From the IMG/VR virus record IMGVR_UViG_3300024974_000002, positions 1 through 51,589 of that record: a DNA stretch of 51,589 nucleotides; one strand, 5' to 3'. The notes beneath the pieces are model-generated. The model was not told the origin of the DNA and searched no databases. It saw only the letters and a list, made by a program, of their open reading frames with translations. Source of the DNA: a virus. This document shows, one piece after another, positions 3,101 through 30,518 of this stretch (its first letter is position 1; each line of letters starts with the position of its first letter). Made by a program: the position numbers and the translations under genes.

Positions 3101-3222
3101 TCGAAGAATTAAAACGAAATACTAAAGCTATCGAAAGACAAAAAAATGGTTCTGTGATCAATATGCCGGGATTAGATATTAATCATCATTTGTGGAAAAT
3201 GAAAAATACTAATTGGAACTAA
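1..3222 (+). CDS. Tail tape measure protein, C-terminal part (ORF open from nt 1; continues from 51067..51462 across the junction)
   Basis: Longest ORF upstream of the tail genes. TMP core-like segment GAAEIPQVTEALLKFGAVARTSNVSIQESTALVELLAENGLKGADAGTALRNVLLKI. Long K/E-rich coiled-coil middle and a hydrophobic stretch near the C-terminus. Frame 1 is in frame with ATG 51067 (51463-51067=396). Confidence 0.85.
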   Translation, partial: AKEQAILSSKMTTAYTKLNLQRTIAKRNLLDLLSAENQNTEAIKKAQIEFDKLDVRVRKADHAVGDFHKTVGNYPKIASLTSGLKNLVGAFGLLGGVALFASILKNAFDTIKLFDQALADLSAITGATGKDLDYLKNQAIELGKGTKGGAVAVVEAYKLIASAKPELLENVSALNQVTEAVLTLAQASGMEMPDAAIALTDAMNQFGADASQATVFVDALANGAKYGAAEIPQVTEALLKFGAVARTSNVSIQESTALVELLAENGLKGADAGTALRNVLLKISAPDALPKKAQEEFARLGISLETLKDKSIPIQQKLELLKPLLKDNASIVKIFGLENATAALNVLGHTDRLKELTAKMNENGTATEQANIRMDTLTGSMDKLESAWGSFILSLSEKGNAGGNFLKFWVNDAIDTLSMLDDWFTTSAQKRERELAAIRKEGADSAIKNYADKNKRSLEDLQNVVAWNNAEIAENTRAALELEKINKKIATDDSFFNSGKRKKQIEDNQRKIAALNNKTVFADSENKTVKGFIQQRTAKPAANTDGSSTAINSKEQDKLAKEALDRAKKLSDSLYELQKQRLERSIKINGDIAADDKLSDEVRIKALELVQNKEIDLAKLTEKHSLDADKFVLAKDKMNANQKLVIVNEAENKIVDIKKKTSEEILKINQFDDAKYQKDLEDKVSKINVSMNAELQAENERFAKLGDLEAMAQADREKAVEDHEQKIFEIKKVFAIKTLKLQIANLEAELAASDALPLNEQISADKRQKIAETISKAKLDLSEVEVSTNKKNSEKTVMTEKEKTEKILEMSSALTSALTDLGNAVFEKRIQNIQDEIDKNNEYYDKQIELAGNDARQKNLLEKEREKKNDELEKKKRKEQHKQAVFNKATALAQAGISTALAVLAALSTQPFLPMGPAMAILAGVLGAIQIGAIIATPIPKYKDGRKGGPAETAWVGDGGISEVVTSFDGSNARLTPNIPTLTHLDQGDIVHKSFADYQDYMRASILSGLKMDGRRMNDFQAMQNEEKYGKEMLEELKRNTKAIERQKNGSVINMPGLDINHHLWKMKNTNWN

Positions 3223-11000: not shown

Positions 11001-11410
11001 ATTTGTCGGGAGGCTCAGGAAATTTAATTGCTTTAAATCAAATTATAGGGGGCGTTACAGGTATTACATTCACACCAAATGGAAACGCCTACGTGGTTAC
11101 AGCGAGCGAAATTTATTTCCAGAATAATGACGCATTAGGAACCGCTAATTTGGATGGTGGCATTTTAAAACAAATTGCAGGCACAGGAAAAGGTACGGGT
11201 AAATCTCGTTGGCAAGTATGGACTGGTCAAAAGACCACATCAGGGACAAATATGCAGATTGAAACCCTTAGAGCAAGTTTCGATGAAAACGGAAGATTTA
11301 ATATTGTCACTATGCCTGTATATGCAGATAATGCAACAGCATTATCAGGCGGACTTATTGTGGGTGATTTTTATAGAACTTCTACAGGTTTATTAATGAT
11401 AGTTTACTAA
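8012..11410 (+). CDS. Tail fibre / receptor-binding protein with C-terminal beta-propeller-like repeats
   Basis: 1132 aa, last large ORF of the tail module. Gly-rich linker GGGGGD. Six repeats of the type NGDVYV...IYKQTGGTGSF. Confidence 0.7.
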   Translation: MSFQTFVTERLKAITETLNAIGTNAKKIDELPVQSTLDPASKIHVSKGGTSESLSVQKIIDSIVNKTYSQLLDVGDITVSGLNVIVPSAAMWVYEGIIYQTTAITTIPETLCAAGYLRKDILVANQSNQIILIKGAESETIRIKPNIPIGTVFVTEIDVDDAVIGTPTPPVIGDNFISKVSQSPRRSYDNGIVDLENETRIILYTCTEINYINHLIPGQAYDGRQLFITNENEDESDIVINNLFNHKGNFSFPNAVPFVLKFKETIHTKLFYDFGNKVTYLYVGIIRNQISDITGLTEALEAISPDGLVKEGIISMAGLIATIANEAFVWRINHVEYTNAVFTDTLPATTTGYMRTDIFEGDDNGDIFRKQGNEAIGASLKPSVTVGRIELGSVDVENSTASTPVIPKPKWAVSQQLRDGETGYSPSENVVYDALALKVDKDGAKVLSDNNYTTSEKNKLASIDATHYLPPLQTTVQLSALPQAGISDKARVYVENDLSDYFYDVTASSGDIAPDDQTGGIGFWRKVAVGGETAASIKTKYESNADTNAFTNALKAKLDSITEIFTTALKTGYDGVVTGYTALMATGSRLITSGEITKLSNTSGTNSGDNSTNTQYSGLASSKQDVLVSGTNIKTINGASILGSGDITISGGGGGDMVLASNQTVSGLKMFLNGAFGLRNVANTFTSFFANSNTASRTYTLQNRDGTIADLTDIAGVNSGKMNTPAGTTNYLSKFLTASTIGVSRLFDNGTFFGIGTFGAPTKDITLGNQATREIGVEESNNTTIGRDLTIRAGRTINYIPNSNFNSLNQQFGGYGATSDASGNVYFKAYGGTIYKQTGGTGSFINIGNTGLLGYDIEIAVNGDVYVPGNGYTPGNIYMQTGGTGSFNIVNTIQRTFGDVSAHINGDIYVTADSVLFRRIAGAGDFVAVSGAPVNVTNVECSASGDVYVTGNNKLYKQTGATGSFVDLLQTARNYKYIACAPNGNVYVWENNGDIYNLSGGSGNLIALNQIIGGVTGITFTPNGNAYVVTASEIYFQNNDALGTANLDGGILKQIAGTGKGTGKSRWQVWTGQKTTSGTNMQIETLRASFDENGRFNIVTMPVYADNATALSGGLIVGDFYRTSTGLLMIVY
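10475..11130 (+). repeat. Intragenic tandem repeats (about 40-45 codons, 6 copies) in the tail fibre gene
   Basis: SGNVYF..IYKQTGGTGSFINIGN / NGDVYV..IYMQTGGTGSFNIVN / NGDIYV..FRRIAGAGDFVAVSG / SGDVYV..LYKQTGATGSFVDLLQ / NGNVYV..IYNLSGGSGNLIALNQ / NGNAYV..IYFQ. DNA-level similarity is seen at 10521 and 10651, for example. Confidence 0.75.
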
Positions 11411-13324: not shown

Positions 13325-13941
13325 ATTTTATCACACCATATATCCAAACAATCAGAACCATTTTAATAATTGCCGGAATTGCTTTGGCAATTTGGTTTTA
13401 CAAAGATTGTCAGTTTCAGACAGCAGAAAACAAAAGACAATCTGAAAATATGCATCAAACACGCATTGCTGACAGTTTGCATTTTTCTAGTCAAAATTTA
13501 AACTCTGATGAGATAAAAGAGTATTTGGAATATCAGAATTCAGATCTAAAAAATAAGCTCGCAAAAGAAGGTATTAAGCTAAATAGAATTGAAGGTATCA
13601 TTGCTCAAACATTCAAATATCGAGATACTTCCAAAAGAGAAACCGATGTTTCCGGATTGGTTGCTGCAATAAAAAACAGCATTCCAAAAGAACAAGAATG
13701 GAGCGATTCGACAAAATGCCAAACCATAAAAGGATCCGTTTCTTTTGATGGCCAAAAACTTAAAGTCATTGTTAATGATCGTGAGTTTAAAAATAAATCG
13801 GATGCTGTTGCATTTTGGGAAAGGCGACAATGGAATTTTTTAGGAATAAAAACCCGGTTCCTGGGAAAGAAACAATTTACTTCAAAAGTATTCGATGAAT
13901 GTGGAGAAACTAAAATATTGAAGATTGAAAAGAAAAATTAG
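13321..13941 (+). CDS. Membrane-anchored protein, possible spanin-like lysis accessory
   Basis: N-terminal signal-anchor IRTILIIAGIALAIWF. ATGA overlap with the endolysin stop. Last gene of the lysis cassette. Confidence 0.35.
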   Translation: MNFITPYIQTIRTILIIAGIALAIWFYKDCQFQTAENKRQSENMHQTRIADSLHFSSQNLNSDEIKEYLEYQNSDLKNKLAKEGIKLNRIEGIIAQTFKYRDTSKRETDVSGLVAAIKNSIPKEQEWSDSTKCQTIKGSVSFDGQKLKVIVNDREFKNKSDAVAFWERRQWNFLGIKTRFLGKKQFTSKVFDECGETKILKIEKKN

Positions 13942-14835: not shown

Positions 14836-16050
14836 TTATAGATTTAAAAATTGAATGTTTATTTTTTTCAAAGCTTCGTTTTTTCGTTTATTTCTACCAA
14901 CCAAATATACAGTTTCTGTAACATCGGTTTCGTGTGATGCCATTCCTTTTGATAAATTCAATGCAGCATCTGAAGCTCTGTCCAGTTCATCCAGAAACAA
15001 ATGTTTCAAAGCATAGAAATCAGCAGTCACATTATATTTGTCTTTTACCAATCGCTTCCATCGCAAGCCAATTTGTCGTGGCTGTGTTGGAATTAATGAT
15101 GGTTGCAATCCTCTTGTAAACAAATAATCATCGTCATCGGTACATTCTCCTATTATTTCGGTCCAAAATTTTAAAACGTTTGGCAAAATAACCTTAATTA
15201 CTTCCTTGCTAACGCTACCTTTCAAAATAGTAACTTTATATTCCTGCTTGGCCAGATTAACATCTTTCTTTTGAACTCGAAACAATTCAGCGCTTCTGCC
15301 ACCGGAATGAAAGAATATCATACCATATCTGAAAAAAGTATAATTTTCAGTTTTTAGAATCTTGAATATTTTATTCAGTTCGTCAACTTCAAGGGTTTCA
15401 CGAATTTTCTTTACTGTTTTTTTCTTTTTGATGTCCTTAATAGGATTGTGAAAAACCATTCTTTTTTCTACCAAGTCTGAAAGTACAATAGATAAATGAG
15501 TAAGGTACTTATTGTATTCGTTTGGTGTCAAATCCAAAGGATCTAACAAATCACGTATATGGCCACTGTGAATTTCACAGATAGGAAAGTCAAGTTTCAA
15601 TGCAATAGCCGATTTATCCACCTTAGCGACAATTCTTCTAATCTCTTTTGTTACACCAGGAGAAACCGTTAATAAAGGATATGCAATTTTAAGAGCTTTA
15701 ACAAAATTTAATTTTGGATGTAGCTTTTCTGCTTCCGGTTCCGGTTCTGCAATTGGTTTTACTACATATTTTTTAGTAATCGGGTTGTAACCTTTCTCTT
15801 CAAATAGTTTAGGTATCTCTTTTAGCCATGTTTCAATCACGGCTTTACGATCTTCCAAAGTTCGGAACCGGTTTAATTTTCTTCTGAAAAGAAACCCTTT
15901 TGGGTATTTCTCTTTGAACAATGGATCGTAGAATTTGCATTCTATACGCCAATCAAGCTTTAAAGATTTCTGAGAAGTCAATGTTTTCCAGTTCTCCGGA
16001 TGTACCCATAGGTCAGAGTACGCACAATCGAATAATAAATTTGTTGCCAT
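14836..16050 (-). CDS. int: Tyrosine-type site-specific integrase
   Basis: 404 aa next to attP. C-terminal catalytic region has GGRSAEL (Arg), ILKGSVSKE (Lys), ALKHLF and ASHETDVTETVYL (His...Tyr). Confidence 0.8.
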   Translation of the reverse strand: MATNLLFDCAYSDLWVHPENWKTLTSQKSLKLDWRIECKFYDPLFKEKYPKGFLFRRKLNRFRTLEDRKAVIETWLKEIPKLFEEKGYNPITKKYVVKPIAEPEPEAEKLHPKLNFVKALKIAYPLLTVSPGVTKEIRRIVAKVDKSAIALKLDFPICEIHSGHIRDLLDPLDLTPNEYNKYLTHLSIVLSDLVEKRMVFHNPIKDIKKKKTVKKIRETLEVDELNKIFKILKTENYTFFRYGMIFFHSGGRSAELFRVQKKDVNLAKQEYKVTILKGSVSKEVIKVILPNVLKFWTEIIGECTDDDDYLFTRGLQPSLIPTQPRQIGLRWKRLVKDKYNVTADFYALKHLFLDELDRASDAALNLSKGMASHETDVTETVYLVGRNKRKNEALKKINIQFLNL

Positions 16051-19053: not shown

Positions 19054-21066
19054 ATGAAAACAATTCAAATTAAAGAAATCAACCTTACCAACTTCAAAGG
19101 GTTGAGAAATGAAAAAATCAGTTTTGAAAAAAACACTGATATTTTTGGAGCAAACGGAACTGGAAAAACAACCATTATGGATGCTTTTTTATGGATGTTG
19201 TTTGGTAAAGATTCTACCGATAGAAAAGATTTTGAGATCAAAACATTGGACAAATTCAATGTGGCCATCCCAAAAATAGAACACGAAGTTTCAGCGATTA
19301 TTTTGGTAGATGGTATTGAGATTTCAATATCAAAAATACTTAAAGAAAACTGGGTTAAGAAAAGAGGTTCTGAAACTACTGAGTTCTCAGGTAATGTTTC
19401 TGAATATTATTGGGATGGAGTTCCAATGCAGCAAAAAGCATTTCAGGAAAAAGTAAGCAGTGTTCTTGATGAGACCATTTTCAAAATGATCACAAATCCA
19501 CTGGCTTTTAATTCTTTGAAATGGCAGGATAGAAGAAATGTTTTGGTAGATATTGCCGGAGCAATTTCGGATAGTGATTTGGCAGCCGGAAATGCAGAAT
19601 ACGAAAATCTTGTGGCGCAATTGACCAACGGTAAAACATTGGCCGAATACCAAAAACAGATCCTTGCATCCATCAAAAAAGCCAAAGAAGATCTAAAAGG
19701 AATTCCAACCCGAATTGATGAGGTTTCAAAAAGTAAGCCCGAGTCATTTGATTTTGTAAATCTTGGAATCAGTTTGGATATGAAGGAAAAGGCTTTGTCG
19801 AAAATTGATGATGAAATCACCGATAGCACCAAAGCTTTTGACGGCAAACTACAAGCCATCAATGAGAAAAAAACCAAAGCCAATTCGTTGAAGTCTGAAA
19901 TAGAAATCATCAAAACCAACACTCAAGCTCAAATCGAAAGCAGTTTGAAGCCGGACACTTCTACTTTGGATAATTTCAAAAGAAATCTGGAAACCAAAAA
20001 AGGAGAGTTGTCCAGTTACGAAAACGGTTTGAATACTTTGAACACAAAGACAATTTCAATAAATGACCAGATAAGAACTTATGACAGTAAGTTGGCTACA
20101 CTTCGCATGGATTGGGCTGCTGAAAATGCCAAAGAATTGACATTTAACGATAACGACTTTCATTGTCCTACTTGCAAACGTGAGTTTGAAGCTGGCGATG
20201 TTGAAGGTAAAAAAGTTGAAATGTTGGCAAATTTCAAAACCAAGAAACAAAATGCCTTGGCTGAAATTAATACCAAAGGCGCTAACATAAACACGGAAAA
20301 AACAGCCTTGGAAACCGAGCTGGTAGGACTTAATGACCGTATTGAAAACGGAAAAAAGCATATTGAAACTTTAAAATCCGAGATCAAAACATTGGAGGGA
20401 TCCATCGAAACAGAAGCTTCAAAAACTACAGCAACTGCAAATATCGATAAGGATTCTCTTGTGAGAGAAAGTCTTATAAAAAGCAGCGATTACCAAGCTA
20501 AAATTCAAGAATTGGAAACATTGGAAGCGTCTATTGAAGAAGTTCCAATGGTGGATAATTCAGAACTGAAAGCGAAAAGAGCATCGTTGGTTCAAGATAT
20601 TGACCAAATTAAATCACAATTACGTAACGAGGACCAAATCAAAGCAGTTGACAATCGTATTGCTGACTTGGAGAAAGAGGAAACTGCTTTGGCGCAACAA
20701 ATCGCCAATGTAGATAAAACGCAATTTGTTATCGAGCGATTCAACAAACTGAAAATTGACACTCTGGAAGCCAAAATCAACGAGAAATTCAAGTTCGTGA
20801 ATTTCAGAATGTTCGAAACACAAATTAACGGTGGAGAATCTGAATGTTGCGATGCTTTAATCGATGGTGTACCGTTCAGCGATGCTAATACTGCATCCAG
20901 AATTAATGCCGGATTGGACATCATCAATACGCTTTGCGAATTCTACCAAGTAACCGCTCCAATCTTTATTGACAATCGAGAATCAATCATCAAAGTAATT
21001 GACATCAAAAGTCAACTGATCAACTTGATTGTTTCTGAAAATGATTCAAAACTTAGAGTTGCCTAA
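19054..21066 (+). CDS. Rad50/SbcC-like SMC-type ATPase with a central CxxC zinc-hook-like motif
   Basis: Walker A FGANGTGKTT. Long coiled coils. HCPTCKREF near the midpoint. C-terminal APIFIDNRES (Walker B-like). Confidence 0.65.
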   Translation: MKTIQIKEINLTNFKGLRNEKISFEKNTDIFGANGTGKTTIMDAFLWMLFGKDSTDRKDFEIKTLDKFNVAIPKIEHEVSAIILVDGIEISISKILKENWVKKRGSETTEFSGNVSEYYWDGVPMQQKAFQEKVSSVLDETIFKMITNPLAFNSLKWQDRRNVLVDIAGAISDSDLAAGNAEYENLVAQLTNGKTLAEYQKQILASIKKAKEDLKGIPTRIDEVSKSKPESFDFVNLGISLDMKEKALSKIDDEITDSTKAFDGKLQAINEKKTKANSLKSEIEIIKTNTQAQIESSLKPDTSTLDNFKRNLETKKGELSSYENGLNTLNTKTISINDQIRTYDSKLATLRMDWAAENAKELTFNDNDFHCPTCKREFEAGDVEGKKVEMLANFKTKKQNALAEINTKGANINTEKTALETELVGLNDRIENGKKHIETLKSEIKTLEGSIETEASKTTATANIDKDSLVRESLIKSSDYQAKIQELETLEASIEEVPMVDNSELKAKRASLVQDIDQIKSQLRNEDQIKAVDNRIADLEKEETALAQQIANVDKTQFVIERFNKLKIDTLEAKINEKFKFVNFRMFETQINGGESECCDALIDGVPFSDANTASRINAGLDIINTLCEFYQVTAPIFIDNRESIIKVIDIKSQLINLIVSENDSKLRVA

Positions 21067-21290
21067 TGAATTCTTATAAGGTCAAAAGAAACTCCGACAG
21101 CTTGCCAACTGAAAATTGTCCAGTAAATGTTGGAGTTAAAATAGGAAGTTTTGATTGTACTGCCAATTGCAAAAACAACCAAAACACTAAAAAAGAAATA
21201 CAAAATTTTGGTTTTGAAACACCGGTAATAAGATGCTCGGAAAGGTCAAAACTCAACAAGGAAAATGAACAATTAACCATAGAAATTTAA
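21066..21290 (+). CDS. Hypothetical Cys-containing small protein
   Basis: 74 aa, ATG overlaps the upstream stop, four Cys. Confidence 0.5.
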   Translation: MNSYKVKRNSDSLPTENCPVNVGVKIGSFDCTANCKNNQNTKKEIQNFGFETPVIRCSERSKLNKENEQLTIEI

Positions 21291-21294
21291 AAAA

Positions 21295-22341
21295 ATGACA
21301 GCAGTAACAACACAAGTAGCACCATCACAAAGTGAAAGATTCACGGCAGCAGTGATAAAAGAGTTTTCTTCTAATAATGGAGCCGTTACTATAACACCTT
21401 TCCAAAAGAAACTTTGCCAGAACTATTTTATCAAGATAGATCAAACCCTGAAAGATGCCGAAAAGAAACGTTTGGCAAAAAGTCCTGATGTTAGAGATGC
21501 ATTATCTCTTTCGTGGGAAAATGTAAATATGTCCAAACTGGCCGTTGATGTGATCGCTTTTTCAAGCGTGGAACTAGATCCAACGCAGCCAAATCATATC
21601 AACATGATTCCTTACAAAAACACGGCCAACAACAAATACGATATGGGTTTTGTTATTGGGTACCGAGGAATGGAATTGAAAGCAAAAAAATACGGTTTGG
21701 AAGTTCCAACCGATGTAGTTGTTGAATTGGTTTACTCTAATGACACTTTCAAACAGTATAAAAAAGACCGCAACAACGAAGTGGAAAGTTATGACTTCAT
21801 CATCACGGACAACTTTAACCGTGGCGAAGTGGTTGGCGGTTTTTGGTACCACGAATTTGAAGATTTCCCGACAAAAAACAAGTTGAAAGTATTCTCCTTG
21901 AAAGACATCGAAAAAAGAAAACCAAAATATGCTTCTGTAGAATTTTGGGGCGGTGAAAAAGATAAGTGGGTATTTGATCCAGGAACGGGTAAAAATAAAA
22001 AAGAAGGCAAGGAGAAAATTGAAGGATGGAGCGAAGAAATGTACTTGAAAACAATTTCAAGAAATGCTTTTAATGCCATCACCATCGACAGCAAGAAAAT
22101 TGACGATAATTACTTGGCCATCATCCAGAAAGAAAGCGAAATGAAGGACGCAATTGTCCAGAATGAAGTGATTGCCAATGCCAACAAATCGTCGTTAGAT
22201 TTTGATGAAGCCGAAGTAGTAGAAGATGAAGTAAAACAAATTTCTGAAACTATTCCAACGCCAGTTCCAGAAGAACAGGAAATAATGCAGCCTGAATTTG
22301 AAGAAGCTCAACAACCTGCAGAAGAAGGACCAAAATTCTAA
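21295..22341 (+). CDS. recT: RecT-family single-strand annealing recombinase
   Basis: KLAVDVIAFSSVELDPTQPNHINMIPYKN...FVIGYRGMELKAKKYG resembles the RecT core. Acidic C-terminal tail. Confidence 0.7.
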   Translation: MTAVTTQVAPSQSERFTAAVIKEFSSNNGAVTITPFQKKLCQNYFIKIDQTLKDAEKKRLAKSPDVRDALSLSWENVNMSKLAVDVIAFSSVELDPTQPNHINMIPYKNTANNKYDMGFVIGYRGMELKAKKYGLEVPTDVVVELVYSNDTFKQYKKDRNNEVESYDFIITDNFNRGEVVGGFWYHEFEDFPTKNKLKVFSLKDIEKRKPKYASVEFWGGEKDKWVFDPGTGKNKKEGKEKIEGWSEEMYLKTISRNAFNAITIDSKKIDDNYLAIIQKESEMKDAIVQNEVIANANKSSLDFDEAEVVEDEVKQISETIPTPVPEEQEIMQPEFEEAQQPAEEGPKF

Positions 22342-22438
22342 ATTAAAACAAAGTGGAATTGATAAACGGATAAAGGATACTCTTTTTGAGTATAACGGCA
22401 ACCGGAAGTAAACCTCTTCCACTTTTTATAAAAAATAT

Positions 22439-23179
22439 ATGGAACTCACAATCATAGGAACTGGATCAAAAGGCAATGCTTACATCCTTGGAAATAAAGA
22501 TGAAGTTTTACTCATAGAATGTGGAGTAAATATCAAAGAAATAAAACAAGCCTTAAATTTTGATTTAAGCAAAGTAGTTGGATGCATCTGCACTCACGAA
22601 CACATGGATCATAGCAAAAGCATCTGGGATGTTATGAAATTAGGAATCAATGTTTATAGTTCAAACGGAACATTGAAAAGCAGATTTGTAGATGAACAAT
22701 CCAGAGCTAAAAAGATAGTTTCAAAACAAACTTTCCAAATCGGAAATTTCAAAATACTAGCTTTCGATGTGAAACACGATGCTGCCGAACCATTAGGATT
22801 CTTAATCGAGCATCCTGATTGTGGAAAGGTGCTTTTCCTGACTGATACCAATTATTGCGAGTACACATTCCCTGGCTTGAATAATATCATTATCGAAGCC
22901 AATTTCTCCAAGGAAATCATTGATAGAAAGTTTGGTTCTGAAAGCGGATTGGAATTTTTGAGAAACCGAATTCTAAGATCACATTTCTCACTGACCAATT
23001 GCAAGGATATGTTGTCAGCCAATGACTTGTCAAAAGTAAACAACATTGTGCTGATTCATTTGTCAGATAGCAATTCCGATGAAAAGCAATTTCACAAAGA
23101 AGTTTCTGAATTAACTGGAAAAAACGTCACCGTGGCGAATAACGGAATGAAAATCAATTTTAATAAAACACCGTTTTAA
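22439..23179 (+). CDS. MBL-fold metallo-hydrolase (candidate recombination nuclease)
   Basis: HxHxDH motif (CTHEHMDHSKS). Adjacent to recT. Confidence 0.7.
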   Translation: MELTIIGTGSKGNAYILGNKDEVLLIECGVNIKEIKQALNFDLSKVVGCICTHEHMDHSKSIWDVMKLGINVYSSNGTLKSRFVDEQSRAKKIVSKQTFQIGNFKILAFDVKHDAAEPLGFLIEHPDCGKVLFLTDTNYCEYTFPGLNNIIIEANFSKEIIDRKFGSESGLEFLRNRILRSHFSLTNCKDMLSANDLSKVNNIVLIHLSDSNSDEKQFHKEVSELTGKNVTVANNGMKINFNKTPF

Positions 23180-23181
23180 TA

Positions 23182-23781
23182 ATGCACCGACCAAAACCAA
23201 TCAACGAGCGAAAAGCAAACCAAACATTTATACTTACTTTAATTTTTGTCATCGCTTTAATTTGCGGAATTGCCAATGCACAACCAAAGGACCAGGAACA
23301 TTATTTGGCTTTTTCTACCGGATTAGACATTAAAAATGCCATAATTGGCAGCAAGGCAACTGGTGATAAACCCGCACTTGATTTATTGTATCAATTTGCA
23401 ATGGTTTCCCAAAACATCGAAGTGAACATAGGATATGAGCGATTCAATGCCATTTACTTTGACAAATTCACATTTGGAGTTGGCTATCATTTCCCACTTT
23501 ATGGAAGGATTGGAAACACGGTTATCAAGACCGTTCTTATTCCTAGTATAGAGCCAACTCTTATTGGTAGATGGGGTAACGAATGGCAAACTACAAGCTC
23601 ACATCTTTCCATCGGTGGTAACTTATCTCTAAGATGGCATTTAAGCGATAAAACAGCCTTGGAATTTCTTTCCAACTTTTTGCCACGAACCGATTTATAC
23701 TCCAGGTACCCAGAACTTCATTCGAGCGTTCCGATTGTTCCTAGTTATTATTTAAAGATAATTTATAAAATACAAAGATAA
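23182..23781 (+). CDS. Outer-membrane beta-barrel-like protein (moron)
   Basis: Signal peptide FILTLIFVIALICGIANAQ. Alternating hydrophobic beta-strand pattern (FTFGVGYHF, LSIGGNLSLRWHL, YYLKIIYKI). Confidence 0.5.
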   Translation: MHRPKPINERKANQTFILTLIFVIALICGIANAQPKDQEHYLAFSTGLDIKNAIIGSKATGDKPALDLLYQFAMVSQNIEVNIGYERFNAIYFDKFTFGVGYHFPLYGRIGNTVIKTVLIPSIEPTLIGRWGNEWQTTSSHLSIGGNLSLRWHLSDKTALEFLSNFLPRTDLYSRYPELHSSVPIVPSYYLKIIYKIQR

Positions 23782-24056
23782 TGGCTAAAAAAATCAAAAA
23801 AAAGAGTCACGTCACTTACAACAAAAAATCATTTTTGGCTCCTGAAAGCATTCATTCAATGGCTGCAATTTTCACCAAAATATATCCTGATGGAATAGCC
23901 ATTATTAGAATATCAGATTGCAATCAAACCATCAAGCTTTGGAATGATTTGAATGACAAAGATCAAGTCAAAGAAATGGTTACAAAAATCACAAACATCC
24001 AAAATGCTTTGGATGAGTTTAAAAAAGAAGTAGAAATAAAATTAAACAAAATTTAA
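23781..24056 (+). CDS. Hypothetical protein
   Basis: 91 aa, ATAATG overlap with the upstream gene. Confidence 0.55.
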   Translation: MAKKIKKKSHVTYNKKSFLAPESIHSMAAIFTKIYPDGIAIIRISDCNQTIKLWNDLNDKDQVKEMVTKITNIQNALDEFKKEVEIKLNKI

Positions 24057-24058
24057 AA

Positions 24059-24535
24059 ATGGAAACATTACAAATTGACAAAGCGAATGCTTTAAAAGCC
24101 CACGAAGAGGCAAGTATCAAAGGGAAATCATTATTGGAAAATCTATTTGGCAAAAAAGTTTTTCTAAAAGATGTAAAAGACAGAATCAAAAATTTTGATG
24201 ATGTTTTGGCCGAAAACGGAATTTCAAGAGAAGATTTTGAAACATCCTGCGAAGGATTGGAACCAGATGAAATTGCCTATCGAATGGCAAAATTAGTATG
24301 TCTAGCATTCAATGAGGGATGGTTGCCAGATTGGACCAATAGCAATGAGTATAAGTATGCGCCTTATTTCAGAATGGGTTCTTCTTCGGGCGTCGGTTTT
24401 TCGTACTACGGCTACGATCGTTGGGATACGAATTCGACTGTCGGCTCGCGCCTTTGCTTTAAATCTTCTGATTTGGCAAAACATGCTGGACAACTTTTTG
24501 AACAAGAAATTTATAAACCACTTTTTACAATTTAA
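24059..24535 (+). CDS. DGR target protein 1 (158 aa)
   Basis: Contains VR1. Paralogue of the next ORF: WLPDWTNSNEYKYAPYFRMGSSSGVGFSYYGYDRWDTNSTVGSRLCF. Confidence 0.85.
   Translation: METLQIDKANALKAHEEASIKGKSLLENLFGKKVFLKDVKDRIKNFDDVLAENGISREDFETSCEGLEPDEIAYRMAKLVCLAFNEGWLPDWTNSNEYKYAPYFRMGSSSGVGFSYYGYDRWDTNSTVGSRLCFKSSDLAKHAGQLFEQEIYKPLFTI
24378..24453 (+). repeat. DGR variable repeat VR1
   Basis: 76-nt alignment to TR. 10 mismatches, all at TR adenines (hand count). Confidence 0.9.
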
Positions 24536-24536
24536 A

Positions 24537-24917
24537 ATGAACTACACAGAAATCAAAACATTTGAAGATGCTTGCATTGCCATTGGACTTCAACAGCCGG
24601 AATTAGTAATTCCAGATTTTTTAAGCTTTCCATCAACTGATAGAGAAGCTATGATTGCACACGCAAAATTAGTGATAATCGCCAAAGCCATAAATGGTGA
24701 CTGGGTACCAGACTGGACAGATTCAAGCCAATGGAAATATTACCCTTGGTTTGAGATGGGTTCTTCTTCGGGCGTCGGTTTTTCGTTCGGCGGCGACGGT
24801 GCTTGGTATTCGGATTCGGTTGTCGGCTCGCGCCTTTGCTTTGAAACCAGAGAAAAAGCAAAGTATGTAGGAACACAATTTGAAGAATTGTACAAAATCT
24901 ATTTTGTAAAAGAATAG
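24537..24917 (+). CDS. DGR target protein 2 (126 aa; start trimmed to ATG 24537)
   Basis: Contains VR2: WVPDWTDSSQWKYYPWFEMGSSSGVGFSFGGDGAWYSDSVVGSRLCF. The track ORF 24312.. is an out-of-frame upstream extension over target 1. Confidence 0.85.
   Translation: MNYTEIKTFEDACIAIGLQQPELVIPDFLSFPSTDREAMIAHAKLVIIAKAINGDWVPDWTDSSQWKYYPWFEMGSSSGVGFSFGGDGAWYSDSVVGSRLCFETREKAKYVGTQFEELYKIYFVKE
24760..24835 (+). repeat. DGR variable repeat VR2
   Basis: 76-nt alignment to TR. 17 mismatches, 16 at TR adenines plus one T->G (hand count). Confidence 0.9.
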
Positions 24918-24948
24918 CAAATTAAGGTTGTGTGGTGTCGTTGCTGTA

Positions 24949-25024
24949 GTTCTTCTTCAGGCGTCAGTTTTTCGTACAACGACTACGATAATTGGAATAC
25001 GAATTCGAATGTCAGCTCGCACCT
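24949..25024 (+). repeat. DGR template repeat (TR), non-coding, immediately upstream of the RT
   Basis: 19 adenines in 76 nt. In the VR frame it reads SSSGVSFSYNDYDNWNTNSNVSSH. Homology to the VRs breaks at 25025 (CCTGAGCTAA vs CCTTTGCTTT). Confidence 0.9.
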
Positions 25025-25061
25025 GAGCTAAAAAATATTAAACATCACAGACCTTGCCCAC

Positions 25062-26093
25062 ATGGCAAAAAAACACAAATTAATAGGTTCGTTAGTAATG
25101 AAAATGAAAGCGAACCAATCAAAGCAAAGTATGAAACGATTCAAAAACATATACCAACAAATTATATCACCGGAAAACTTAATTCTTGCGGAAGCGAAAG
25201 CACGCAAAGGCAAAGCCAAACAATATGGTGTTAAGGTTTTTGATAAAAATCCACATGGAAACCTTGCGGAACTTCATAATATTTTGCTTGAAAAAAATTA
25301 CAAAACATCAGAATACACCACTTTCAAAATCTTTGAACCTAAGGAAAGGCTGGTTTTTAGATTGCCATACTTTCCTGATCGCATTACCCATCACGCTGTT
25401 ATGAATGTTCTGGAACCAATATTTACCAAATTATTCACGGCTGATACTTATAGTTGTATCAAAGGAAGAGGAATTCACGGAGCTGCCAATAATCTAAAAA
25501 AAGCATTGAAGGACCAGGAGAATACAAAGTACTGTTTGAAATTAGATATTGTCAAGTTCTATCCAAATGTAGATCATGAGGTTCTAAAGCAACTATTTAG
25601 AAAAAAGTTTAAAGACCAGGATTTATTTTGGTTGTTGGATGAAATTATTGATAGCGCTGATGGTTTGCCAATCGGCAATTATTTAAGCCAATATTTTGCA
25701 AACTATTACCTGACCTATTTTGACCATTGGATAAAAGAAAACAAGGAAGTAAAATATTACTTCAGGTATGCTGACGATATTATTATTCTATCGAACAACA
25801 AACCACATCTTCACGAGCTGTTGGCAGAAATAAAAACCTATTTGAATGATAATCTAAAGCTTCAGGTAAAAGGGAATTATCAAATATTTCCAGTTGAAGC
25901 CCGTGGAATTGATTTCGTGGGTTATAAGTTCTACCATACGCACACAATGCTTAGGAAATCAATCAAAAAAAGATTTGCCAAAGCAATATCAAAAACAAAA
26001 AACAAAGCAACGATAGCCGCTTATTTCGGATGGGCTAAACATTGCAATTCAAAACATTTATTAAAAAAATTAATACCAAATGAACAATTTTAA
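25062..26093 (+). CDS. DGR reverse transcriptase (alternative start ATG 25131)
   Basis: LPIGNYLSQYFANYYL ([LIV]GxxxSQ DGR signature), YADDIIILS (YxDD), and an N-terminus MKRFKNIYQQIISPENLILAEAKARKGK typical of DGR RTs. Confidence 0.9.
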   Translation: MAKKHKLIGSLVMKMKANQSKQSMKRFKNIYQQIISPENLILAEAKARKGKAKQYGVKVFDKNPHGNLAELHNILLEKNYKTSEYTTFKIFEPKERLVFRLPYFPDRITHHAVMNVLEPIFTKLFTADTYSCIKGRGIHGAANNLKKALKDQENTKYCLKLDIVKFYPNVDHEVLKQLFRKKFKDQDLFWLLDEIIDSADGLPIGNYLSQYFANYYLTYFDHWIKENKEVKYYFRYADDIIILSNNKPHLHELLAEIKTYLNDNLKLQVKGNYQIFPVEARGIDFVGYKFYHTHTMLRKSIKKRFAKAISKTKNKATIAAYFGWAKHCNSKHLLKKLIPNEQF

Positions 26094-26376
26094 AGATTTC
26101 GATATAAAACCTGTGATAACAAATTTTGTAGGCGAAAAAATCAAGATAAACAATTTGCTTGACAAAGAAATAATTGTAGTTGATTTCAAAGTACTTCCAT
26201 CAAACTATGAAGGAAAAGGAGATAGACTTGACATACAAATTGAATATCGTGATGAACCACGAGTGGTTTTTACTGGAGGTAAATATCTAATTCAAACCAT
26301 AGAAAAAGTACCAAAAGACAAGTTCCCATTCAAAACAAAAATTTGCAAAAATGGTGAGCATTTAGAATTCACATAA
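26080..26376 (+). CDS. Hypothetical protein translationally coupled to the RT (14-nt overlap)
   Basis: 98 aa. Appears beta-rich rather than a helical bundle by eye. Confidence 0.55.
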   Translation: MNNFKDFDIKPVITNFVGEKIKINNLLDKEIIVVDFKVLPSNYEGKGDRLDIQIEYRDEPRVVFTGGKYLIQTIEKVPKDKFPFKTKICKNGEHLEFT

Positions 26377-26385
26377 AATAACCCT

Positions 26386-26835
26386 ATGATTTACAACGCC
26401 ACAAACCAGCTTCAAAAAAACCAAGCAATAGAAAAGCTGAAATATTTTATTTCTAAAGGAAAAACTTTTGAATTGAAAGCAAAGCATCCAAAAAGAAGTA
26501 TTTCCCAAAACAGCTATTTGCATTTAATCCTGACTTGGTTTGGAATTGAAACCGGTTACACGATGGAAGAAGTAAAACAGGAAATATTTAAAAAGCACAT
26601 CAATTCAGCCATTTTTTATGAAGGAGAATTTGAGGGTAAAATCAAAGGATTCAAAATTGAACGCTGGCGAAGTACTGCAAGTTTAGATACAGCAGAAACA
26701 ACATTGGCCATTAATAGGTTTAGGAATTTTTCAAGCAATGAACTTGGGATTTATCTCCCAGAACCCAAAGAGTTGGCATTGCTTCAAGACTTGGAAAACG
26801 AAATAAGTAAACACACAAATCAAGAATATTTATGA
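26386..26835 (+). CDS. NinB/Orf-like recombination mediator (tentative)
   Basis: KRSISQNSYLHLILTWFG resembles the lambda NinB segment RSLDQNRKLWACLGDV (from memory). Confidence 0.4.
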   Translation: MIYNATNQLQKNQAIEKLKYFISKGKTFELKAKHPKRSISQNSYLHLILTWFGIETGYTMEEVKQEIFKKHINSAIFYEGEFEGKIKGFKIERWRSTASLDTAETTLAINRFRNFSSNELGIYLPEPKELALLQDLENEISKHTNQEYL

Positions 26836-27209
26836 CACCATTTGAAATAACTAACCAGGCTGTTGAAGAAGTTGATAAAAATAACAAATCATACAGCAAT
26901 AGTATTTATGAATTTGCCGAAAACTGGGTCAAAAAACAAATGAAACCCTTTACTGCAGATGATTTGAAAAAAGCCTATTACGAGGCTGGAAATACACCTC
27001 CATCACAACCAAGTGTTTTTGGAGCACCTTTCAGAAAATTATCAAAAAGACATTTGATTTTCGATACTGAAAGAACCCAAAAAAGCACCAATAAAGATGC
27101 TCACCAAAGACTGTTGCGAGTTTGGATAAGTAAAGAATATAGCCTAGTACAACAGGCCAACGCATCGCAACAAAACCGAAACCAAATATCAATTTTTAAT
27201 CAATTATAA
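26832..27209 (+). CDS. Hypothetical protein
   Basis: 125 aa, ATGA overlap with the upstream gene. Confidence 0.55.
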   Translation: MTPFEITNQAVEEVDKNNKSYSNSIYEFAENWVKKQMKPFTADDLKKAYYEAGNTPPSQPSVFGAPFRKLSKRHLIFDTERTQKSTNKDAHQRLLRVWISKEYSLVQQANASQQNRNQISIFNQL

Positions 27210-27211
27210 TC

Positions 27212-27808
27212 ATGGCAAAAGAAAAAGTTTTCACAATCCTTGCAGACAAATTAGGATTAGCAGATCAAGTTCAAAAAGATGTAGAAATTAAAAGCGCCTC
27301 GCTCAAAGATGCCCTTTGTAATTATTCCTATGAATTATTAGTAGGCAAAATGAAAGGTGATGGATTATCACGAAAAGGAACCCATATTGTACACGAAGAT
27401 TTACAAGATGCTTTCTCAAAATTCGATGTGTTTTTAGCGCACTTAGATGATGCTTTTACAGGAAATGACAACGCTACAGAGCTTTCATTTTTAGAAGGAG
27501 AACCAGAAACTAAAAGTTACTTCGTTTCCTCTTTTAAAATTACTGGAGTAGAAGAAAACAAAGCCTTAATTATTTCTGGCACAAAAGACGTTACCAATGG
27601 TACTATTTCATTTGATGCTCCAAAGGTAAAACTAAATGGAAACTACCTCTACTTAACCCAATTGACTGATTGCTTAGATAACGTGATCAAAGAAGTTGAG
27701 TTTTATATGAATGGAAAAGTAGCTCCACAACCGGAACAAATGCACATGGATTTTGCCTCAGAAGATGCTTCTTTTGATAATGCCAAATTCGAAGAAGAAG
27801 CCGTTTAG
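27212..27808 (+). CDS. Hypothetical protein with an acidic C-terminal tail
   Basis: 198 aa, ends ...SEDASFDNAKFEEEAV. Lies upstream of the helicase. Confidence 0.55.
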   Translation: MAKEKVFTILADKLGLADQVQKDVEIKSASLKDALCNYSYELLVGKMKGDGLSRKGTHIVHEDLQDAFSKFDVFLAHLDDAFTGNDNATELSFLEGEPETKSYFVSSFKITGVEENKALIISGTKDVTNGTISFDAPKVKLNGNYLYLTQLTDCLDNVIKEVEFYMNGKVAPQPEQMHMDFASEDASFDNAKFEEEAV

Positions 27809-27810
27809 TT

Positions 27811-28959
27811 ATGGGATTTCAACTTAGGCCATATCAAGCAGATTCAACACGTTTAGGGGTGGAATATTTACAAGGAAAGTCAAATGACAATGCTGTAATA
27901 GTGCTACCAACAGGCGCTGGGAAATCTATTGTTATTGCCAATTTAGTAGCACCGCTGGAGGGTAAAACGGTTATCCTCCAGCCGTCAAAAGAAATTCTTG
28001 AACAGAACTATGAAAAGTATTCAAAATATGGAAAAGCTTCTATTTACAGCGCATCAGCTGGCGAAAAATACATTAGTAGGGTTACTTTTTGCACCATTGG
28101 CAGCGTAATAAATAAGAAACATTTGTTTGCTGGACTCAAAAATATACTGATTGATGAATGTCATTTGGTAAATTCAGATGGGGGAATGTATCAGGAATTT
28201 ATCAATTACTTTCCAGAAGCTAATGTCTTAGGATTAACGGCCACGCCATATCGCTTATCACAAACCAGCGAAGGACCACAACTGACATTCCTGACTAGAA
28301 GCACGCCAAGGATATTTAATAAAATCTTGTACTACGTTCAAAATAATACGCTGTTTGACGCAGGATTTTTGGCAAAGCTAGAGTATTACTCCTTTGATGT
28401 AATTGACCGCTCAAAATTGGAGCTGAACAGTTCAGGAACCGATTTTACACCAGCTTCGTTAAGTCGCTATTACAAGTCAATCGATATGCCAAGCCGAATT
28501 GTAAAATATGCAATGCACATCCTTTCCAAAAAACCAAATTTATTGATTTTCTGTGCCTTGATTACCGAAGCGCAGCAAGTAGTAAAACGCATTCCTGGAG
28601 CGGTTCTTTTAACCTCAGATACCAAGAAAGAGGAACGAGAACGTATCCTTTCCAAATTCAAAAAAGGAATCATCAAATGTGTGGTAAATGTAGGTGTTTT
28701 GACTACTGGTTTTGATTATCCAGAACTCGAAGCCGTATTGATGGCCAGATCCACAATGTCGTTATCATTATTCTATCAAATTGTAGGTCGTGCAATGCGA
28801 ATTCACCCCAACAAAGAGAATGCTTGGGTGGTTGATTTAGGAGGTAATCTCAACCAATTTGGTAAGATTGAAACAATGAAAATTGAAGTAGATAATGAAG
28901 GGCGTTTTGCTATCTGGAACAACGGAAGACAACTTACAAACGTACCTTTTAAAAAGTAG
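27811..28959 (+). CDS. SF2 DEAD/DEAH-box helicase
   Basis: Walker A LPTGAGKS, DExH box LIDECH, motif III LTATP, motif VI QIVGRAMR. Confidence 0.85.
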   Translation: MGFQLRPYQADSTRLGVEYLQGKSNDNAVIVLPTGAGKSIVIANLVAPLEGKTVILQPSKEILEQNYEKYSKYGKASIYSASAGEKYISRVTFCTIGSVINKKHLFAGLKNILIDECHLVNSDGGMYQEFINYFPEANVLGLTATPYRLSQTSEGPQLTFLTRSTPRIFNKILYYVQNNTLFDAGFLAKLEYYSFDVIDRSKLELNSSGTDFTPASLSRYYKSIDMPSRIVKYAMHILSKKPNLLIFCALITEAQQVVKRIPGAVLLTSDTKKEERERILSKFKKGIIKCVVNVGVLTTGFDYPELEAVLMARSTMSLSLFYQIVGRAMRIHPNKENAWVVDLGGNLNQFGKIETMKIEVDNEGRFAIWNNGRQLTNVPFKK

Positions 28960-28966
28960 AATTAAT

Positions 28967-29890
28967 ATGGCTAGAGAACAAAGAAAAGATGTTGATTATT
29001 TTCCACACGATTGTACTCACGGACGTAAAATGCACATAATTGAAACAAAATATGGTAATGATGGGTATGCAACTTGGTTTAAGCTATTAGAACAGCTTGG
29101 AAAAGCCAATAATCATTACATAGATGCTTCAGATGAAATGACCTTAATGTTTCTGACTTCTGTTTTTAAAATTGATGAAGAAAAAACACTTTCTATTTTA
29201 AATGATTTGGCAAAATTAGGAGCAATAGACAAAGTACTTTTTGATGATTACAAAGTTATTTTCAGTCAAAAATTTGCCGATAGTATTCAAGATGCTTATC
29301 GAAATAGAAAAGGTAAAATTTTTCAATACAGCGACATATTGGACGAAATAGGGCAAAAAAACGGTCAATCTTACGTAAGAATGACACCTAATGACGCCAA
29401 TCTTACGGAAGTTATCCCTAAAGTAAAAGAGAGTAAAGTAAAAGAGAGTAAAGTAAAAGAAAACAAAGAAGAATATACTCCTAACGGAGTAGTTGATTTT
29501 CCAAATCAACCTCCAGCTCACAAGATTGATTTTGATAAACTTCTTTCTTTTTTTAATTCAAACCGAGGGCTTTTGCCGGAGGTAAAAAAAATGTCAGACG
29601 TCAGGAAAAAAAGAATTCAGCTTCTGGAAAAACAATACGGCAAAGAATCAATTCAGACTGTAATTCAAAAAACAAGAGATTCTCCATTCCTGCAAGGCGA
29701 CAATAAAGAAAACTGGACGGCTAGTTTTGATTGGATTTTCAAACCAGCCAATTTTTTAAAAATTTTAGAAAATAATTATGGAACAAGAGAAAATATACGA
29801 GGTAATAATTCATCAAGAACAGATGCTGACCTTAAAAAATCCGCTAACAACGCAGTTGATGCAATGTTTGGTATCACAGGATCAAGTTAA
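28967..29890 (+). CDS. Replication initiator/organiser (DUF4373-like N-terminus; start trimmed to ATG 28967)
   Basis: MAREQRKDVDYFPHDCTHGRKMHIIETKYGNDGYATWFKLLEQLG resembles the Lin1244/DUF4373 N-terminal domain seen in Bacteroidota phage replication genes (from memory). Confidence 0.55.
   Translation: MAREQRKDVDYFPHDCTHGRKMHIIETKYGNDGYATWFKLLEQLGKANNHYIDASDEMTLMFLTSVFKIDEEKTLSILNDLAKLGAIDKVLFDDYKVIFSQKFADSIQDAYRNRKGKIFQYSDILDEIGQKNGQSYVRMTPNDANLTEVIPKVKESKVKESKVKENKEEYTPNGVVDFPNQPPAHKIDFDKLLSFFNSNRGLLPEVKKMSDVRKKRIQLLEKQYGKESIQTVIQKTRDSPFLQGDNKENWTASFDWIFKPANFLKILENNYGTRENIRGNNSSRTDADLKKSANNAVDAMFGITGSS
29420..29464 (+). repeat. 15-bp tandem repeat x3 inside the initiator gene (iteron/origin candidate)
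   Basis: AAAGTAAAAGAGAGT AAAGTAAAAGAGAGT AAAGTAAAAGAAAAC, encoding KVKES KVKES KVKEN. Confidence 0.8.
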
Positions 29891-29912
29891 ACTTTTGATC
29901 CTTGAAAAAAAC

Positions 29913-30518
29913 ATGAATCTTCAAAAAGCTATTGATGGGACCAGAATAAACAAATTGGAAAAAACTTTGGGAGAAATCAATATGGTAAAAGTGGTTACTT
30001 ATCTGTTGATGCGATTTTCAGAAAGTTTTAATGTTGGAAAAAATATCACAAATACTCAAGCTCCATTAATTGCCATTGACATCATCGAAAAATATCCGTA
30101 TGAAACAATCGAAGATTTAGTATTGCTTCTAAAGCAAGTAAGGCAGGGTATTATTGGTGACGGTAAGGATTATAAACTAGACGGCCAAAACATTCTAAAC
30201 AAATGGTTTCCCGAATATCTTGAAAAAAAATACATTGAATTTGAGCGTATGAAAAAGCAGGAAAATGTTATTTCTCAAGACGAAAAAGACCTTAGAAATA
30301 ATGCAGTAGCCCAACTTTATGCAAAGAGAAATTCACAAAAAGCCAGAAAAGAAAGGGAAGAAAAAACCAAACTTGAAATTGATGAAATGGTTAAAAATAT
30401 GGACAGACAAATGCTTGAAGATACCATTGCCAGTTGGGAAAAACAGCAGGAAATGGAGCCTTATCTGGATTATTTAAGACAAAAAAGATTAGTTGTCAAA
30501 GGAGATTATAAATTTTAA
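29913..30518 (+). CDS. Hypothetical protein (start trimmed to ATG 29913)
   Basis: The track start 29778 overlaps the previous gene by 113 nt. ATG 29913 lies 20 nt after its stop. Confidence 0.55.
   Translation: MNLQKAIDGTRINKLEKTLGEINMVKVVTYLLMRFSESFNVGKNITNTQAPLIAIDIIEKYPYETIEDLVLLLKQVRQGIIGDGKDYKLDGQNILNKWFPEYLEKKYIEFERMKKQENVISQDEKDLRNNAVAQLYAKRNSQKARKEREEKTKLEIDEMVKNMDRQMLEDTIASWEKQQEMEPYLDYLRQKRLVVKGDYKF

Follow-up and report, generated by a model that had tools for sequence, protein, structure and literature searches.

A 2.3-kb cassette occupies positions 24059-26376 of the virus record IMGVR_UViG_3300024974_000002 in IMG/VR, which was analysed from position 1 to position 51,589 (the whole stretch of 51,589 bp is called the window hereafter). 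In order, the cassette consists of two target genes, T1 and T2, a template repeat (TR), a structured RNA, a reverse transcriptase (RT) gene, and a small open reading frame (ORF) named ORF98, and it constitutes a diversity-generating retroelement (DGR). To our knowledge, DGRs are the only known natural targeted protein hypermutation system in prokaryotes; those of phages are understood almost wholly as tail-fibre or host-range devices that need the protein Avd. The window spans one entire JGI contig and reads as the whole genome of a temperate siphovirus, circularly permuted and with 35% GC; the phage host would be a Flavobacterium-like member of the Bacteroidota. A first-pass annotation made from the letters of the DNA had described the locus as a DGR, and this description held: the RT class, a single TR with two variable repeats (VRs), adenine-only mismatches, an initiation of mutagenic homology (IMH) paired with its TR counterpart IMH*, and a conserved TR beside variable VRs were all found.

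Template and variable repeats

The window contains a single three-copy family of direct repeats with starts at 24378, 24760, and 24949, which align in MAFFT without gaps. The third copy is the non-coding TR (24949..25030, plus strand), which is intergenic, ends approximately 100 nucleotides (nt) 5' of the RT gene, and is composed of a 5' block (24949-24975), a mutagenic core (24976-25009), and the IMH* (25010-25030, GTCAGCTCGCACCTGAGCTAA). The other two lie on the same strand in the 3' parts of two ORFs: VR1 (24378..24459) has its 5' block at 24378-24404, its diversified core at 24405-24438, and its IMH at 24439-24459 (GTCGGCTCGCGCCTTTGCTTT), while the corresponding parts of VR2 (24760..24841) are found at 24760-24786, 24787-24820, and 24821-24841. 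Over 76 nt of the TR (24949-25024), the computed alignment reproduced the 19 adenines counted by hand in the first-pass annotation, together with its mismatches: VR1 differs from the TR at 10 positions, 10 of 10 being TR adenines (hypergeometric p = 1e-7), and VR2 at 17, comprising 16 TR adenines and the change T24984>G (p = 1.5e-12). The adenine bias, which had been set beforehand as a refuting check, thus stands at 26 of 27 mismatches. Read in the VR frame, the TR gives SSSSGVSFSYNDYDNWNTNSNVSSHLS followed by a stop, an AAY-rich template as had been claimed, with 5 AAY codons in the core; VR1 and VR2 share this frame, and 18 of the 19 TR adenines are in codon position 1 or 2. The abrupt 3' end of the homology was recovered at 25024/25025, where the TR reads CCTGAGCTAA and both VRs read CCTTTGCTTT, as was the IMH/IMH* boundary, with the GC-rich VR block GTCGGCTCGCGCCTTTGCTTT facing the differing TR block GTCAGCTCGCACCTGAGCTAA and homology stopping at 25025. 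A pattern with N at the adenines matches at these three sites and nowhere else in the 51.6-kb window, against an expectation of none (100 shuffles); VRs are thus absent from the tail genes and from any other remote gene.

The same bias was measured in relatives, for which 80 loci were taken from the 516 RT-related loci found in IMG/VR. The scan with N at adenines is circular for adenine specificity, and the bias figures come instead from a blastn test with equal penalties, in which the TR was defined by position only (300 nt 5' of the RT) and compared with the 3.5 kb upstream. The 74 analysable loci (66 with two VRs, six with three, and two with one) gave 152 TR-VR pairs, in which 2,003 of 2,095 mismatches (95.6%) fell at TR adenines without the adenine bias having been used. 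The mismatch rates by TR base over these pairs were 66% for A, 0.5% for C, 1.7% for G, and 1.1% for T. The 3' tails of T1 and T2, which are paralogous and were picked up in this search as well, served as an internal control and were unbiased (A 29%, C 27%, G 35%, and T 19%). This control bears on the view that the element is not a DGR at all, its repeats being ordinary paralogy or gene conversion and its RT a member of another class; the gene tails are paralogous and lack the adenine-only pattern, and that view is very nearly untenable. The six cassettes with three VR-bearing target genes are those of loci L029, L034, L052, L065, L085, and L087.

The TR and the VRs differ sharply in their conservation. 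The 75-nt TR is identical in six further viral contigs (seven in total), while all 11 VRs of these contigs differ from one another. Against two relatives (L012 and L013), the TR shows 0 differences in 82 positions, the RT gene differs in 18% and T2 in 25% of nucleotides, and the VR cores differ in 24-50%. Judged from these comparisons, the TR is under strong purifying selection, and the VRs turn over even between the closest relatives. Lineage-specific changes at non-adenine positions (e.g., TTCTTC>TTCTCC and GGCGTC>GGTGGC) occur jointly in the TR and both VRs, which argues for repeated transfer of information from TR to VR.

The outcome at each position was tallied from 88 distinct VRs of 45 loci with a window-like TR; the ungapped extension behind this tally inflates the non-adenine differences (5%) in divergent loci, and the blastn-segment figures are preferred for that quantity. 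All 19 TR adenines had been put forward as variable sites. This stands for the 15 core adenines (24976-25009), at which all four bases occur among the VRs (A kept in approximately 38%, G 29%, T 21%, and C 12%), but not for the four flanking ones, which are fixed differences, with A in the TR against G in almost all VRs (24959 in 70/71, 24966 in 64/66, 25014 in 86/88, and 25021 in 80/81). The mutagenic core is therefore 34 nt long, with 15 A in 10 codons, five of them AAY and five with a single A. Since only the core adenines are randomised and the four flanking ones are fixed, the effective repertoire is that of 10 codons, which amounts per target to 4^15 = 1.07e9 DNA variants and 15^5 x 4^5 = 7.8e8 peptide variants. 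The positions 25014 and 25021 fall in the GC-rich block just 5' of the homology end and may be read as differences between the IMH (VR GTCGGCTCGCGCC) and the IMH* (TR GTCAGCTCGCACC), and selection for Gly could account for the G at 24966. Three of the four A>G sites (24959, 24966, and 25014, all but 25021) have CAG in the TR where the VRs have CGG, a pattern that persists in lineages whose RTs are only 67-69% identical. The mutagenic core is bracketed by GTCAG boxes in the TR and by GTCGG boxes in the VRs.

Inverted repeats begin after both VRs where the TR/VR homology ends, inside coding sequence. VR2 has a 9-bp stem (CTTTGCTTT/AAAGCAAAG, 24834-24862) that begins within the IMH and is not significant on its own (z = -1.18), and VR1 has a composite hairpin at 24453-24480 (z = -2.56). 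A hairpin or cruciform just 3' of the VR is a DGR feature seen in BPP-1, though it is not universal; the inverted repeats after VR1 and VR2 resemble the BPP-1 hairpin, but they are coding. The TR IMH* is itself a small palindrome (25011-25030 of the window), AGCTCG...TGAGCT, which arises from the differences at 25025 (G>T) and 25026 (A>T) and which the VR IMH cannot form. In more distant relatives, CCTATGC pairs with GCAT(A) further downstream in place of this palindrome.

Reverse transcriptase, spacer RNA, and ORF98

The RT gene (25131..26093, plus strand) encodes a protein of 320 amino acids that matches RVT_1 (E = 6e-20) and phrog_1423 (E = 4.5e-128). Its ORF is open from 25062, with the ATG at 25131 as the likeliest start, because all 80 relatives align from that methionine and the stretch 25050-25131 is a structured RNA. 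The signatures that had been noticed in the translation are in place: LPIGNYLSQYFANYYL at 25665-25712 includes IGNYLSQ at 25671-25691 ([I/V/L]GxxxSQ), and YADD is encoded at 25767-25778. The best match in the Protein Data Bank (PDB) is 8ub7 (154.5 bits, E = 4e-44), which we take to be Brt, since the Brt of BPP-1 gives the same alignment; the RTs of group II introns, retrons, and Drt3a reach 35-60 bits in that search (E of 3e-15 or weaker). The identity is 33% with BPP-1 Brt (E = 8e-52) and 37% with the DGR RT of ANMV-1 (E = 3e-74). By alignment with BPP-1 Brt, the protein also carries counterparts of R74 and I181, which are known in Brt to promote adenine mutagenesis (PMC7826257). The earlier assignment to the DGR type is borne out by sequence scores, the measure used here rather than a tree, in which DGR RTs score far above other RT classes. 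An RT of another class, as required by the view that this is not a DGR, could appeal to the matches that the RVT_1 domain gives to group II, Drt3a, and retron models. All of these are far under the curated cut-offs and well below the scores of DGR RTs: the group II intron model TIGR04416 gives 117 against a cut-off of 300 bits, the retron St85 model 61 against 235 bits, and the defence-associated models Drt3a and Drt2 83 against 200 bits and 46 against 390 bits, respectively, and these three assignments were rejected. Furthermore, an Rfam scan detected no group II intron RNA and no retron RNA, and T1, T2, and ORF98 are without PADLOC matches.

The spacer between the TR and the RT gene holds an RT-17-like structured RNA (25050..25131, plus strand) with a hairpin P1 (25054-25068) and a stem P2 (25086-25116) that encloses an inner hairpin; its conserved elements are GCAAAAAA, UAGUA/GAAA, and AAGCAAAG. 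The Rfam model RT-17 (RF03020) matches this interval with 36.8 bits (E = 1e-5), which is under its gathering score of 40.4 bits; two relatives exceed this score at the homologous site (L053 with 45.9 bits and L078 with 44.0 bits), and the RT-14 model also matches, more weakly, at 24991-25122. RNAalifold over 49 loci recovered P1 as well as P2 with its inner stem, with compensatory changes in 9 of 12 pairs. The spacer RNA is best described as a probable diverged member of RT-17 or a close relative of it: the RT-17 motif occupies the same place, just 5' of the RT gene, and has the same two-stem architecture. The spacer RNA of BPP-1 is required for the priming of cDNA synthesis, and by analogy the RNA at 25050-25131 would be the RNA scaffold of this DGR. 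RT-17 is typed in Rfam as an sRNA gene under a name that is silent on DGRs, and this orphan motif would thereby gain a biological role as a DGR spacer RNA.

ORF98 (26080..26376, plus strand) encodes 98 amino acids with an isoelectric point (pI) of 7.8, and its 5' end shares 14 nt with the 3' end of the RT gene. All 77 loci with enough downstream DNA carry it, at +949 relative to the start of the RT, and its family comprises at least 806 clusters, none of them annotated. A further locus (L091), reached from the ORF98 side, has a 43%-identical homologue directly 3' of an RVT_1 RT, with two genes of approximately 160 amino acids ahead of that RT. Homologues also lie directly 3' of the DGR RTs of ANMV-1 (hhalign E = 6e-18) and vir525 (7e-21), so that the pair of RT and ORF98 spans bacterial and archaeal viruses; the archaeal copies are at 3492-3788 in ANMV-1 (L095, KP703175) and at 3462-3749 in vir525 (L096, BK063673). 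The AlphaFold2 (AF2) model of ORF98 has a predicted local distance difference test (pLDDT) score of 93.9 and the topology b1-b2-b3-helix-b4-b5, a small beta-barrel. No match to ORF98 was obtained in Pfam, NCBIfam, or PADLOC. Avd was not detected among the neighbouring ORFs by Pfam and NCBIfam, and the ORF98 profile has no similarity to BPP-1 Avd. Avd is present in approximately 74% of DGRs and hence is not strictly defining. DGR lineages without Avd are known, and so are other lineage-specific accessory genes (PMC5758913). On the grounds of synteny and predicted fold class, we infer that ORF98 may be a nucleic-acid-binding cofactor that stands in for Avd. No description of ORF98 was found in the literature, a result that leaves aside its possible identity with one of the rare "PAG1-4" candidates (PMC5758913), which could not be checked.

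Although the DGR is a known system, the architecture found here is distinct, with its lack of Avd, an RT-coupled OB-like ORF (after the oligonucleotide/oligosaccharide-binding fold), an RT-17-type RNA, twin targets that are not tail proteins, and a short TR. With high confidence, the cassette is considered a complete, very probably active DGR of an Avd-less lineage in the replication/recombination module of a temperate Flavobacterium-type siphovirus. The idea of a fossil DGR, active in the ancestors and inert here, with VR differences that are inherited relics, could draw on the one non-adenine change of VR2 (T24984>G) and on the RT-17 score slightly under the Rfam gathering threshold. However, all parts are intact (the RT ORF with YADD, the TR, the stems of the RNA, both target ORFs, and ORF98), and the TR is strongly conserved while the VRs differ between even the closest relatives, which makes a fossil improbable. 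From these sequence data, current activity is inferred for this particular genome as well.

In the proposed mechanism, the TR and the adjoining RT-17-type RNA would be transcribed, and the RT would make a complementary DNA (cDNA) of the TR that is faithful at C, G, and U and promiscuous at A, probably with the help of ORF98 in the place of Avd. This cDNA would then replace the homologous stretch of VR1 or VR2, with the direction given by the VR IMH (GTCGGCTCGCGCC...) as opposed to the TR IMH*. Effective randomisation would be limited to the 34-nt core, and the four flanking adenines would be kept in the TR, with G at these sites in the VRs.

Target proteins and comparison with known systems

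T1 (24059..24535, plus strand; 158 amino acids, pI 5.1) matches phrog_11581, and T2 (24537..24917, plus strand; 126 amino acids, pI 4.7) is its paralogue with 42% identity; both proteins are acidic, fall into this PHROG family, and lack a signal peptide. The claim of a second VR-bearing ORF was right in that VR2 lies within it, but the gene starts at the ATG at 24537, 1 nt past the T1 stop, and not at the ORF start at 24312. Neither protein belongs to a family in Pfam, NCBIfam, or PADLOC, the PHROG search gave them no structural annotation, and all 692 homologues of T2 are named "hypothetical". A T1-type gene is located approximately 1068 nt 5' of the RT start in 69 of the 80 related loci. The T1/T2 family has 3,992 representatives at 50% clustering, with typical lengths of approximately 125 or 158 amino acids, and T2 homologues are known from contigs of 51-53 kb as well as from Flavobacterium genomes. 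Those of Flavobacterium sp. GT3P67, F. gilvum EM308, and Flavobacterium sp. AED are 70-71% identical to T2, and the GT3P67 contig encodes an ORF98 homologue with 94% identity too. Two copies of the target domain are held by some database proteins of 250-350 amino acids; together with the three-target cassettes, they indicate that the target array expands and fuses. Longer members of the family have no Pfam domains either. Among 36 aligned homologues, only the codons with TR adenines vary (FS-x6-W-x3-S-x-VGSRLCF), and this C-terminal loop is proposed to be the variable surface of the targets. Foldseek with the AF2 model of the target found no fold match in the PDB, the target profile matched neither PDB sequences nor Mtd, and a BFVD search returned uncharacterised phage proteins only. 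DGR targets usually display their VR on a C-type-lectin fold and rarely on an immunoglobulin-like fold. The Tentaclins (PMC10743442) and the pilus-tip targets of Bacteroides (bioRxiv 2024.11.15.621889) were considered as the target family, and both are different families.

The cassette shares with BPP-1 (mtd-avd-TR-brt) a TR located 5' of the RT, a VR placed close to the target's 3' end, differences specific to adenines, a GC-rich IMH opposed to an IMH*, a structured RNA between TR and RT, the IGxxxSQ and YxDD motifs, and the R74/I181 equivalents in the RT. It differs in having a conserved ORF after the RT and no Avd, and in two tandem non-tail targets of 126 and 158 amino acids, not detectably similar to Mtd, in comparison with the single target of BPP-1. 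Here, 25-35 codons follow the VR, whereas that of Mtd stops only 5 nt short of the gene end. The TR has 82 nt with 15 effective adenines, as compared with 134 nt in BPP-1, where it has 22 adenines (PMC7826257).

ANMV-1 and vir525 share a homologous RT (that of vir525 is also annotated phrog_1423) and the ORF98 homologue directly 3' of it, but they have archaeal hosts and large targets, namely adtA of 446 amino acids beside genes annotated as capsid tail fibre in the one and a tail protein in the other. In the published scheme of ANMV-1 (Paul et al., 2015; PMC4372165), the name Avd is given to what is probably the 64-amino-acid ORF lying between the target and the RT. For Nanoarchaeota DGRs, that paper assigns ORFs of this kind to Avd by their pI and mass, and the ORF 3' of the RT in ANMV-1 goes undiscussed there (PMC4372165). 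The Avd-less types described by Wu et al. (2018) (Architecture A, Lineage 3, and CH1; PMC5758913) likewise have the TR-RT core and no avd; multiple targets occur among them, and an alternative small accessory gene marks the lineage. The CH1 protein, however, is acidic (pI 4.7) and has 160-169 amino acids, while ORF98 has 98 and is near-neutral.

The DGR of the Bacteroides phage LoVEphage has a distal target that is a remote T1/T2 homologue (MW660583, 33613-34197 of L097, 194 amino acids; hhalign probability 99.1%). Its RT adjoins the tail collar fibre gene, which is the primary target there, and this small-protein second target is 14 kb away in an early region like that of T1 and T2, with RecE/RecT, resolvase, and methyltransferase genes as neighbours. 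One TR (13383-13500 of L098) matches both the fibre VR (13670-13787) and the small-protein VR (approximately 34003-34116 on L097), and the mismatches inside the repeat are only at adenines. The small LoVEphage protein thus shares its VR type with a receptor-binding protein, and the T1/T2 family is a recurrent DGR target, as the LoVEphage TR also serves its homologue. In the cassette described here, by comparison, the small proteins are the only targets, form a tandem duplicate in cis, and have a VR approximately 24 amino acids shorter. A protein search with ORF98 of the phage collection, including the LoVEphage records, matched only ANMV-1 and vir525. Of all this, the description of LoVEphage notes no more than the RT beside the fibre gene (PMC8525569); DGRs of Bacteroidota temperate phages with a second, distal VR were reported by Dahlman et al. 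(2025) (PMC12629997).

Among deposited phage genomes, the closest RTs (50-60% identity) are those of crAss-like phages such as cr55_1 (NC_055869). The gene order of cr55_1 is similar, with target, TR, and RT followed by a small overlapping ORF, but the target is a tail protein of 572 amino acids; the ORF after the RT was considered as an ORF98 homologue and is not detectably related. The C-terminus of this tail protein (1554-3272 of L094), encoded beside the 60%-identical RT, reads GSAAGLGSCLSSYTVGYSHAYCGSRLVY and resembles the VR motif GSSSGVGFS...VGSRLCF, a likeness that is not statistically significant.

Judged by gene position alone, the best guess is that the targets are soluble binding modules of the infected or lysogenic cell, which would serve in phage-host conflict rather than adsorption. 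The DGR is part of the replication/recombination module and has the same orientation as the replication genes, and the tail genes are at least 13 kb off, beyond the lysogeny module. In the other main possibility, a doubtful one, the same DGR would govern host range as in BPP-1, with T1 and T2 as virion-associated receptor-binding or adhesin modules, for example tips or decorations, that dock on the tail or head via a helical N-terminus. Most viral DGR targets are tail proteins (PMC8144416), the LoVEphage TR is shared by a tail collar fibre and the small-protein homologue with a single VR type, the tail-protein VR of the crAss-like phage resembles the VR here (GS..G.G...GSRL, not significant), and proteins without a signal peptide can still enter virions. 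Nevertheless, T1 and T2 belong to the early module, apart from the tail genes; the LoVEphage homologue also sits amid RecE/RecT, resolvase, and methyltransferase genes, the cassettes of the relatives are found in varied non-structural contexts, and T1 and T2 carry no structural annotation in PHROG. The intracellular reading in its full form, in which the DGR solely maintains hypervariable small cytoplasmic binders (defence or host-factor inhibitors, or prophage sensors) with an OB-fold cofactor of the ORF98 family replacing Avd, is offered only tentatively.

Several observations weigh against one or another part of this picture. A role of T1 and T2 in the virion keeps a modest likelihood. The helical N-terminal part of the target is modelled well by AF2, but pLDDT is below 50 over the VR; with this low score and the absence of a PDB or Mtd match, a C-type-lectin scaffold would be conjectural, although the TR that serves both the LoVEphage homologue and a tail collar fibre VR lends it indirect support. 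The turnover of VRs beside a constant TR comes from related contigs, the closest of which still differs by approximately 5% of nucleotides in T2 outside the VR. The adenine at 24959 occupies a silent third position, yet is G in 70 of 71 VRs, and neither random mutagenesis nor protein-level selection accounts for this constancy. The Foldseek matches of ORF98, among which OB-fold domains predominate, are not significant (best E = 0.12), and the ORF98 profile found no match in PDB sequences; ORF98 is therefore called only OB-like. Moreover, ORF98 is near-neutral (pI 7.8) while Avd is basic, and the role suggested for it from synteny and fold class is a putative one.

This small cassette, which has more than 500 relatives in IMG/VR, is of wider significance: no tail gene is targeted, only a large, unannotated family of small early-region proteins (approximately 4,000 clusters at 50% identity), which raises the question of how a phage benefits when a protein that is apparently intracellular is diversified. 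In 2025, no more than four species of gut prophages were noted to have distal VRs close to counter-defence genes. ORF98, which strictly accompanies the RT in viruses ranging from Flavobacterium phages to those of ANME-1, is a testable candidate for how Avd-less DGRs work. The cassette size of 2.3 kb could suit engineered in vivo mutagenesis.

Genomic surroundings

The window encodes no tRNA genes, and a megablast of its positions 20000-30000 (10 kb) against 50,697 GenBank phage records gave no match, which points to the lack of a close cultured relative among GenBank phages. A sigma-70 promoter scan gave no excess over shuffled sequence; the model is ill-suited to Bacteroidota, and the result was not used. 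Virion-protein genes begin with the tape measure (31-3222) and continue to approximately 11.4 kb, where the tail module ends with an ORF of 1,132 amino acids (8012-11410) that has no PHROG match and no VR and is a candidate tail fibre or receptor-binding protein. The terminase, portal, and major head genes are located at 41.7-47.8 kb. The integrase gene is on the minus strand (14836-16050), followed by genes for an SbcC-like protein (19054) and a metallo-beta-lactamase (MBL)-fold protein with PF12706/PF00753 matches (22439). On the other side of the cassette are NinB (26386, a PHROG-level match) and an ORF of 382 amino acids (27811) that appears helicase-like from its sequence alone.

Two genes 5' of T1 is an ORF of 199 amino acids (23182-23781) with a signal-like hydrophobic N-terminus and no family match, and between it and T1 lies an ORF of 91 amino acids (23781-24056), which was rejected as a cassette member, being present in only 2 of the 80 loci. 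Flanking genes other than the cassette members are each common to only 1-6 of these 80 loci, whereas the ORF98 offset is constant, and the unit T1-T2-TR-RNA-RT-ORF98 is therefore regarded as a mobile module. The surroundings of the related cassettes change between loci among non-structural contexts. Genes for signal-peptide proteins are also found next to the cassette in several relatives (L031, L057, L029, and L045); their presence beside it here and there suggests that the cassette occupies a moron or accessory hotspot.

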